From sequence record OR437326.1: a stretch of DNA of 64,000 nt; one strand, written 5' to 3'. Positions 5,741 through 5,819 of this stretch are shown here, piece by piece (position 1 is the first letter of the stretch; each line of letters opens with the position of its first letter). This DNA is from Escherichia phage iGC_PHA_EC001. The position numbers and the translations under genes were made by a program. Under the pieces are notes generated by a model, which ran no database searches, had not been told where the DNA came from, and saw only the letters and a list, made by a program, of their open reading frames with translations.

Positions 5741-5819
5741 AGCGGGATAGAGGAGTCTGGTCGTCCTCGCCAGTTTCATATGCTGGAGATCATCGGTTCA
5801 AATCCGATTCCCGCCTCCA
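5741..5819 (+). tRNA. second tRNA with anticodon CAT (Met/fMet or Ile-lysidine type)
   Basis: Acceptor AGCGGGA/TCCCGCC with 1-72 mismatch, D stem GAGG/CCTC, anticodon arm CCAGT-TTCATAT-GCTGG, T arm ATCGG-TTCAAAT-CCGAT, CCA. Confidence 0.55.

Follow-up and report, generated by a model that had tools for sequence, protein, structure and literature searches.

Two CAU tRNAs in a Phapecoctavirus tRNA cluster: a probable tRNA-Ile2 and a probable unconventional initiator tRNA

The genome of Escherichia phage iGC_PHA_EC001 (sequence record OR437326.1) contains a cluster of transfer RNA (tRNA) genes within the 64,000-nucleotide stretch of DNA analyzed here, referred to below as the window. Two genes of this cluster, both on the plus strand, share the anticodon CAT (CAU in the RNA): tRNA1 at 3902-3976 and tRNA2 at 5741-5819. 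Judged from their sequences, the operon probably carries two functionally different CAU tRNAs, tRNA1 being a tRNA-Ile2 and tRNA2 an unconventional initiator tRNA, a reading that is given a probability of about 70%. An original prediction, made from the letters of the DNA, had placed two CAT tRNAs at these positions, and ARAGORN reproduces the coordinates exactly. It had also considered that one copy may be an isoleucine tRNA of the lysidine type, which is supported for tRNA1 by Ile-annotated nearest genes and by the pairs C4-G69, C5-G68, and C29-G41. Its further suggestion that the phage may supply a variant initiator is supported for tRNA2 by Escherichia coli matches confined to formylmethionine (fMet) tRNA genes, by the initiator determinants, and by the open 1:72 position in its relatives. 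The contrary outcome named there, elongator tRNA-Met for both genes, is not seen, as elongator tRNA-Met is the closest E. coli CAT tRNA to neither of them.

Structure of tRNA2

The gene for tRNA2 spans 79 nucleotides (nt) including the encoded CCA and reads, arm by arm, AGCGGGA-TA-GAGG-AGTCTGGTCGT-CCTC-G-CCAGT-TTCATAT-GCTGG-AGATC-ATCGG-TTCAAAT-CCGAT-TCCCGCC-T-CCA. The 5′ strand of the acceptor stem, AGCGGGA (5741-5747), pairs with TCCCGCC (5809-5815) save for A1 (5741) and C72 (5815), which form an A x C mismatch; the remaining six acceptor pairs are Watson-Crick. The unpaired 1-72 position that had been predicted for the second tRNA is recovered from the sequence, from the ARAGORN brackets, from the Rfam alignment, which marks the same non-pair, and from the minimum-free-energy fold, a cloverleaf with 1:72 open. 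A shifted acceptor register, with the 5′ end at G2 or with an A1-U73 pair, was considered and rejected: it leaves a stem of 6 base pairs (bp) or no discriminator base, and the relatives all keep the register given here.

The D arm, GAGG-AGTCTGGTCGT-CCTC (5750-5768), has an 11-nt loop and contains A11-U24 and G12-C23. In the anticodon arm, CCAGT-TTCATAT-GCTGG (5770-5786, with the anticodon CAT at 5777-5779), the stem pairs are C27-G43, C28-G42, A29-U41, G30-C40, and U31-G39, and the loop is U32 U33 C34 A35 U36 A37 U38. One of the three G-C pairs of initiators is present, and the predicted lack of three consecutive G-C pairs is accordingly seen as A29-U41, G30-C40, and U31-G39. By alignment, the loop of the T arm, ATCGG-TTCAAAT-CCGAT (5792-5808), is identical to that of the E. 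coli initiator tRNAfMet. The discriminator is U73 (5816), where E. coli tRNAfMet has A73, and it is followed by a genome-encoded CCA that ends at 5819. The Rfam tRNA model scores tRNA2 at 50.0 bits and tRNA1 at 64.5 bits, against a gathering score of 29.

Assignment of tRNA2 to the initiator class

The window belongs to a Phapecoctavirus, a phAPEC8-like E. coli phage of the Stephanstirmvirinae, and shares 97-98% DNA identity with numerous genus members from Escherichia and Shigella. This identity points to E. coli or Shigella as the host and makes E. coli tRNAs the right reference; the genes used were the initiators metZWV, the elongators metT and metU, ileX, and the prophage gene ileZ. When tRNA2 is searched by blastn against 5,426 complete E. 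coli genomes, every matching gene is annotated tRNA-Met, with a median of 4 matching places in each genome; in one example the match falls between mltA and amiC, the site of the initiator cluster metZWV. In global alignment, tRNA2 is 71% identical to tRNAfMet, 59% to elongator tRNA-Met, and 54% to ileX.

The determinants point in the same direction. Among 1,070 classified CAT tRNAs, the majority from bacteria and some from organelles, A11-T24 and G12-C23 fully discriminate bacterial fMet genes, being found in 100% of these and absent from Met and Ile2 genes (Silva et al., 2006; PMC1635315). The same study reports C1 x A72 in 98.5% of bacterial fMet genes, with A-U or U-A in 1.5%, and an anticodon-stem rule for fMet of R29 G30 G31..Y39 C40 Y41. 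Of the determinants for Fmt, an unpaired 1:72 is the major one, A73, G2-C71, C3-G70, and G4-C69 are minor, and R11:Y24 is also named (PMC9976931). tRNA2 combines the CAU anticodon and the absence of a Watson-Crick 1:72 pair with G2-C71, C3-G70, and G4-C69 and with A11-U24 and G12-C23, and its sequence is closer to known initiators than to elongator Met or Ile2.

Compared with E. coli tRNAfMet (metZ, metW, metV, metY), tRNA2 has the same CAU, unpaired 1:72, G2-C71, C3-G70, G4-C69, A11-U24, G12-C23, G30-C40, T loop UUCAAAU, and encoded CCA. It differs in having A x C for C x A at 1:72, U73 for A73, A29-U41 and U31-G39 for G-C pairs, the anticodon loop UUCAUAU for CUCAUAA, an 11-nt for a 9-nt D loop, G13-C22 for C13-G22, and A46 for G46.

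Some of these differences weigh against the initiator assignment. A minor Fmt determinant, A73, is replaced by U73 at 5816. Two of the three G-C pairs are missing, and U31-G39, a Y:R pair, falls outside the rule of Silva et al. (PMC1635315) and is not among the variants named in the accessible portion of Shetty et al. (2017). Since the loop is UUCAUAU and not CUCAUAA, the C32-A38 geometry described for tRNAfMet cannot form. In addition, E. coli mutants of the au/GC/gu type grow more poorly in minimal medium (Shetty et al., 2017). Database labels add to these points: the record of phage Mt1B1_P17 calls the tRNA2 homologue tRNA-Pseudo-CAT, and most GenBank records give plain tRNA-Met. The labels of this gene are inconsistent overall, being tRNA-Met, tRNA-fMet, pseudo, or missing, and the homologue in phage JohannJBalmer, 95% identical to tRNA2, is annotated tRNA-fMet.

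Genetics in E. coli bears directly on the missing G-C pairs. For E. coli to be sustained, the middle pair G30-C40, and in some contexts even G30 alone, is both essential and enough; natural initiators of the types au/GC/GC, GC/GC/gu, and au/GC/gu exist, and cg/GC/cg works too, with a fitness cost in the cold or in minimal medium (Shetty et al., 2017). The stem of tRNA2 is au/GC/ug, its third pair being opposite in orientation to the cellular variants described there. Because tRNA2 keeps G30-C40 and this pair is sufficient in E. coli genetics, the incomplete three-G-C motif would not be fatal to initiator function.

An alternative is that tRNA2 serves as an elongator tRNA-Met for internal AUG codons and has merely inherited its initiator-like features. 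The cluster holds no other candidate for elongator Met, the three-G-C motif is incomplete, U73 stands in place of A73, U32 is unlike the initiator loop, and most GenBank records carry the label tRNA-Met, all of which would suit such a role. This alternative is nevertheless unlikely, given that an elongator would have to accommodate the open 1:72 of tRNA2, which in E. coli is a classical anti-determinant for EF-Tu. The closer identity to tRNAfMet (71% against 59%) speaks against it as well, and elongator Met genes of bacteria lack the pairs A11-U24 and G12-C23 (PMC1635315). The behavior of 1:72 in the relatives of tRNA2, described below, argues further for an initiator.

Relatives of tRNA2 and a virus-borne family

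The tRNA2 gene is found at 90% identity or higher in about 135 phage records. Nine distinct relatives with at least 89% identity to tRNA2 have A x C, C x C, U x C, or C x U at 1:72 and never a pair. Homologues in the sister genus Justusliebigvirus (JohannJBalmer, outra) carry C1 x C72, while related IMG/VR contigs carry U1 x C72 and C1 x U72. The T stem of these nine relatives occurs in four compensated variants, ATCGG/CCGAT, ATTGG/CCAAT, GTAGG/CCTAC, and GCAGG/CCTGC. An open 1:72 made of varying bases, together with compensatory changes in the T stem, indicates a gene under selection and argues against the pseudogene label.

To the points that weigh against a working initiator must be added the copy in Salmonella phage UAB_1, which has two T-stem mismatches and is the sole mismatched copy among the nine. 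This homologue (locus L009, 2500-2578) has a different 3′ end with G2-U71, U72, and A73, is not annotated as a tRNA, and is followed immediately downstream by an HNH homing endonuclease gene; the copy looks like a recombination scar. In Justusliebigvirus, a further CAT tRNA lies just upstream of the tRNA2 homologue (locus L007, 2409-2484; locus L008, 209-284), with the acceptor sequence TGATAGT, the loop TTCATAA, and a paired 1:72. This additional tRNA, absent from the window, may be the elongator Met that Phapecoctavirus lacks.

More distant relatives were sought in IMG/VR by means of the D arm alone (GAGGAGNNNGGTCGTCCTC), which leaves 1:72 and the anticodon stem unconstrained. More than 120 contigs are among the matches listed, and from these a set of 58 distinct 76-nt tRNA(CAT) sequences with a gap-free alignment was drawn. 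A first viral scan by the anticodon-stem pattern GCCAGTTTCATNNNCTGG returned mostly chance matches in coding DNA, of which only the tRNA-shaped ones were used. Position 1:72 is unpaired in 50 of the 58 distinct members (86%); at each of the remaining stem positions, 56 or more of the 58 (96.6-100%) have a standard pair. Non-CAT tRNAs at these loci provide the background: of 874 distinct sequences, 44 (5%) have 1:72 unpaired (Fisher p of about 7e-48), so that the open 1:72 of the family is more than chance. Changes on both sides of a pair are found at 15 of 21 stem pairs; doubly changed cells number 213, where shuffles give an expectation of 62.

Within the anticodon stem, the middle pair 30:40 is the most conserved (G-C in 50 of the 58, C-G in 4, G-U in 3). 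Its neighbors vary freely: 29:41 is A-U in 25 members, G-C in 23, and U-A in 10, and 31:39 is U-G in 23, G-C in 18, and C-G in 15. This pattern, with G-C kept at 30:40 and freedom at 29:41 and 31:39, matches the finding that G30-C40 alone sustains growth of E. coli (Shetty et al., 2017). Among 62 family members, 50 have A as the discriminator, 11 have U, and 1 has C, and 41 keep the loop CUCAUAA. A covariance model of the family built without E. coli sequences gives E. coli tRNAfMet 78.3 bits and places elongator Met (49.3), ileX (46.1), and tRNA1 (43.3) below it; tRNA2 itself scores 97.1 bits with the family model R1. Initiator-like tRNA(CAT) genes also occur in cultured phages of Klebsiella (the T5-like Sugarland), Caulobacter, Streptomyces, Aeromonas, Pseudomonas, and Erwinia, most of them with a GAGG/CCTC D stem.

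These data bear on the elongator alternative as well as on the possibility that tRNA2 is a decaying pseudogene or non-functional remnant. Against an elongator stands the 1:72 mismatch, held through four base combinations in close relatives and present in 86% of the family against 5% of other tRNAs; the family model also favors fMet over elongator Met by 29 bits. For a pseudogene one can cite the label in Mt1B1_P17, the T-stem mismatches of the UAB_1 copy, and the Rfam score of tRNA2 (50 bits), the lowest among the ten cluster tRNAs called by ARAGORN. Decay is nonetheless very improbable for a gene that persists at 90% identity or more in about 135 records, encodes its CCA, and has a cloverleaf as its minimum-free-energy fold. 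The T-stem changes are compensated, with UAB_1 alone mismatched among the nine relatives, and the excess of double changes extends this to the 58-member set, in which stems other than 1:72 are 96-100% paired. What selection maintains in this lineage is the fold, a 1:72 that is open or weakly paired, A11-U24, and G30-C40, and this combination is an initiator signature.

The D arm that defines the family is not restricted to phages. A phage-only D arm was considered and not upheld in a scan of bacterial and archaeal genomes, which recovered the same arm (GAGG, an 11-nt loop ending in GGUCGU, CCUC) in about 24 tRNA(CAT) genes on actinomycete chromosomes (L253, L256, L282, L283, and others). It also occurs in two initiator-like tRNAs of the archaeal contigs L316 and L364, which have A1-U72 and GGG/CCC.

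tRNA1 as a probable tRNA-Ile2

The gene for tRNA1 (3902-3976, plus strand) has the acceptor strands GGCCCTG and CAGGGCC, the anticodon stem GTCGG/CCGAT, and the loop CUCAUAA, and carries C4-G69, C5-G68, C29-G41, A73, A37, and A38. Of these bases, A73 and A38 are identity elements for isoleucine. E. coli TilS requires C4-G69 and C5-G68 (PMC1635315), and Ile identity elements include C4-G69, C29-G41, and t6A37 (PMC9976931). The combination of C4-G69, C5-G68, C29-G41, and A73 with the loop CUCAUAA fits Ile2.

Sequence comparison agrees with this assignment, the nearest E. coli genes being tRNA-Ile. tRNA1 is 84% identical to the prophage gene ileZ, 76% to ileX, 67% to metT, and 65% to fMet, and its blastn matches in E. 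coli are only tRNA-Ile genes, located in prophage Ile-Arg-Arg clusters of the ileZ-argN-argO type. As in those prophage clusters, tRNA1 adjoins a tRNA-Arg(UCU). It shares with tRNA-Ile2 (ileX, ileY, and prophage ileZ) this Arg(UCU) neighbor, the acceptor start GGCCC, C4-G69, C5-G68, C29-G41, A73, and CUCAUAA, and differs from it in a shorter D loop and in the T loop, which is AUCGAAA as opposed to UUCAAGU or UUCAAAU. The homologue in phage ASO2A is annotated tRNA-Ile-CAT from tRNAscan-SE. Most GenBank labels of tRNA1 are tRNA-Met, and to judge by its resemblance to tRNA-Ile2 the gene looks mostly mislabelled. In the long open reading frames of the window, ATA makes up 12 per 1000 codons and 19% of the Ile codons.

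The T loop of tRNA1, AUCGAAA (A54 and A60; T arm at 3949-3965), is unusual when set against UUCRAAU. Eukaryotic initiator tRNAs have this T loop sequence. Of 1,025 distinct tRNAs in the phage loci examined, 33 have A54, and these are spread over many isotypes.

The identities of the two genes might conceivably be reversed, with tRNA2 as a second tRNA-Ile2 and TilS substrate and tRNA1 as the Met tRNA, inasmuch as CAU and A37 are common to both. Such a swap is extremely improbable. tRNA1 is 76-84% identical to Ile2 genes and has C29-G41 and the TilS pairs, while tRNA2 is only 54% identical to ileX. The reading of tRNA2 as a second Ile2 was rejected on account of its G4-C69 and G5-C68, where E. 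coli TilS needs C4-G69 and C5-G68 (PMC1635315).

Host dependence and predicted pathway

The original prediction had proposed looking for a tilS-like phage gene, and none was found, either in the window or in related phage records among the best 12 matches. In the window, tblastn of the E. coli proteins TilS, Fmt, and Def returns only noise (E of 1 or higher). Against 50,697 phage records, TilS and Fmt match 32 and 64 records, respectively, with no Stephanstirmvirinae among the best 12 of each; the only Escherichia record among these is a 1.8-kilobase fragment. As no TilS or Fmt homologue was found, both tRNAs presumably rely on host enzymes.

For tRNA1, the predicted course is lysidine formation at C34 by host TilS and charging by host IleRS, after which the tRNA would read AUA. 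tRNA2 would be transcribed from the repeated promoter-like site at 5212, processed, and charged by host MetRS through its CAU anticodon. Host Fmt would then be expected to formylate it, given the unpaired 1:72, G2-C71, C3-G70, G4-C69, and A11-U24, with U73 probably lowering the efficiency of this step. The open 1:72 and the formyl group would keep tRNA2 from EF-Tu and Pth, and the retained G30-C40 would allow its acceptance in the P site of the 30S subunit. The sequences establish the gene structure, the nearest relatives, the determinants, and purifying selection on the fold and on the open 1:72; initiator function, comprising charging, formylation, and P-site use, is inferred from the determinants present in the gene. 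The phage likely carries tRNA2 to top up or replace the host initiator during infection.

A possible role in counter-defence

A different purpose for tRNA2 is suggested by the junction of its anticodon loop and stem. Enteric VapC cleaves tRNAfMet between A38 and C39 (cited in PMC4105405), VapC toxins read sequence and structure alike, and E. coli AtaT targets Met-tRNAfMet. In tRNA2 the VapC site A38/C39 of host tRNAfMet is replaced by U38/G39. Position 39 is G in 38 of the 58 family members, although C39 is near-universal in bacterial initiators and Y39 is the bacterial rule (PMC1635315). The relatives of the phage infect Shigella and Salmonella, in which VapC was characterized. The general idea has been published for other phage tRNAs: evasion of anticodon nucleases was proposed by van den Berg et al. 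(2023, eLife), and tRNA2 resembles the nuclease-evading tRNAs of that proposal in that its loop/stem junction differs at the cut site of a host toxin.

On these grounds tRNA2 could be mainly a counter-defence factor, a nuclease-resistant replacement for tRNAfMet or a decoy for toxins (VapC, or AtaT acetylation), and not a dosage supplement. This is quite unlikely as the chief role. There is no evidence of VapBC or AtaRT acting on these phages, and the literature consulted does not give the elements by which enteric VapC recognizes its target. Relaxed constraint could equally explain the changes at the junction, the Salmonella phage copy looks damaged, and phages as a rule avoid a tRNA-fMet gene of their own, according to van den Berg et al. 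(2023).

A broader proposal can be put forward tentatively from the sequence patterns: many phages may carry their own unconventional initiator, and tRNA2 may be a toxin-resistant spare with which phage proteins can still be initiated once the host has destroyed or blocked its own tRNAfMet. Under this tentative proposal, the lineage would conserve only what formylation and P-site acceptance strictly require (some mismatch at 1:72, G2-C71, C3-G70, A11-U24, and G30-C40), and the 38/39 junction, the cut site of initiator-specific host toxins such as VapC, would have been rewritten.

Organization of the tRNA cluster

The cluster runs from 3902 to 5819 on the plus strand and, by ARAGORN, Rfam, and the annotation of ASO2A, comprises Ile2, Arg(TCT), Ser(TGA), Ser(GCT), Tyr(GTA), Asn, Thr, Gly, Gln, Pro, Ile(GAT), and the initiator-type Met. 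ARAGORN calls ten of these genes. A tRNA-Tyr(GTA) at 4600-4684 (plus strand) escapes ARAGORN, scores 39 bits with the Rfam tRNA model, and is annotated in ASO2A; a tRNA-Ser(TGA)-like gene at 4288-4374 (plus strand), also without an ARAGORN call, has a sub-threshold Rfam match to tRNA-Sec (35.7 bits) and is annotated in ASO2A too. When these two are added to the ARAGORN set, the cluster holds at least 12 tRNAs.

A promoter-like motif occurs in three near-identical plus-strand copies, at 3663-3692, 4250-4279, and 5212-5241, each with ctaTTGACAa, an 18-nt spacer, and TAnnnT, and two with an extended TG. The three copies apparently split the cluster into three transcription units. The third, TTGACA-N18-TATAGT, agrees with the consensus at 11 of 12 positions and, from its location, probably drives Gly-Gln-Pro-Ile(GAU), a tRNA-like element, and tRNA2; as the count of promoter-like sites in the region is not above shuffle expectation, this role is only inferred. 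Downstream of tRNA2, a hairpin resembling an intrinsic terminator, AGCCTCC-TTATT-GGAGGCT (5935-5953), is followed by a T run (the whole at 5935-5961, plus strand). It probably ends the tRNA transcription unit, and the ASO2A record has a terminator annotated at the corresponding position.

Two tRNA-like elements lie inside the cluster on the plus strand, at 5665-5734 and 4787-4862. They have an acceptor stem and T arm without a 7-nt anticodon loop. The first type shows 5 bp of stem closed by the tetraloop CUUA, the second a long hairpin, each in one of the two elements. Neither is called by ARAGORN or Rfam, and the family model gives them 23.7 and 13.4 bits, respectively. Decayed tRNAs, processing spacers, and small stable RNAs are possible identities.

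Relation to known initiators and significance

Initiator tRNA is among the most conserved of RNAs, and the three G-C pairs and C1 x A72 are textbook invariants. At least 58 distinct virus-borne sequences keep only some 1:72 mismatch and the middle G30-C40. In losing the outer G-C pairs and keeping G30-C40, tRNA2 is like the unconventional initiators of alpha-proteobacteria, some mycoplasmas, and organelles and like engineered E. coli mutants of the three-G-C motif (Shetty et al., 2017). The natural cellular variants keep R:Y at all three positions (G31-U39), whereas tRNA2 and 23 of the 58 family members have U31-G39 and 15 of the 58 have C31-G39. The carrier also differs, tRNA2 belonging to a virus and other unconventional initiators to cells or organelles.

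Phage tRNA-fMet genes have already been mentioned in genome reports. In the literature, no account was found of an initiator lineage carried by viruses in which the 1:72 mismatches are arbitrary, G30-C40 alone is conserved, and U31-G39 or C31-G39 is frequent, and the large virus-borne family to which tRNA2 belongs is apparently undescribed. A 2025 study of Shigella phage Sf14 found no tRNA-fMet, in line with the avoidance stated by van den Berg et al. (2023). In contrast to that statement, the sequences assembled here form a family of phage initiator-type tRNAs, and they qualify it. The family keeps the minimal set defined by E. coli genetics and in this respect confirms Shetty et al. (2017) independently, from the side of evolution. 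It also raises the idea that some phages may bring with them an initiator that is not recognized by host toxins aimed at tRNAfMet.

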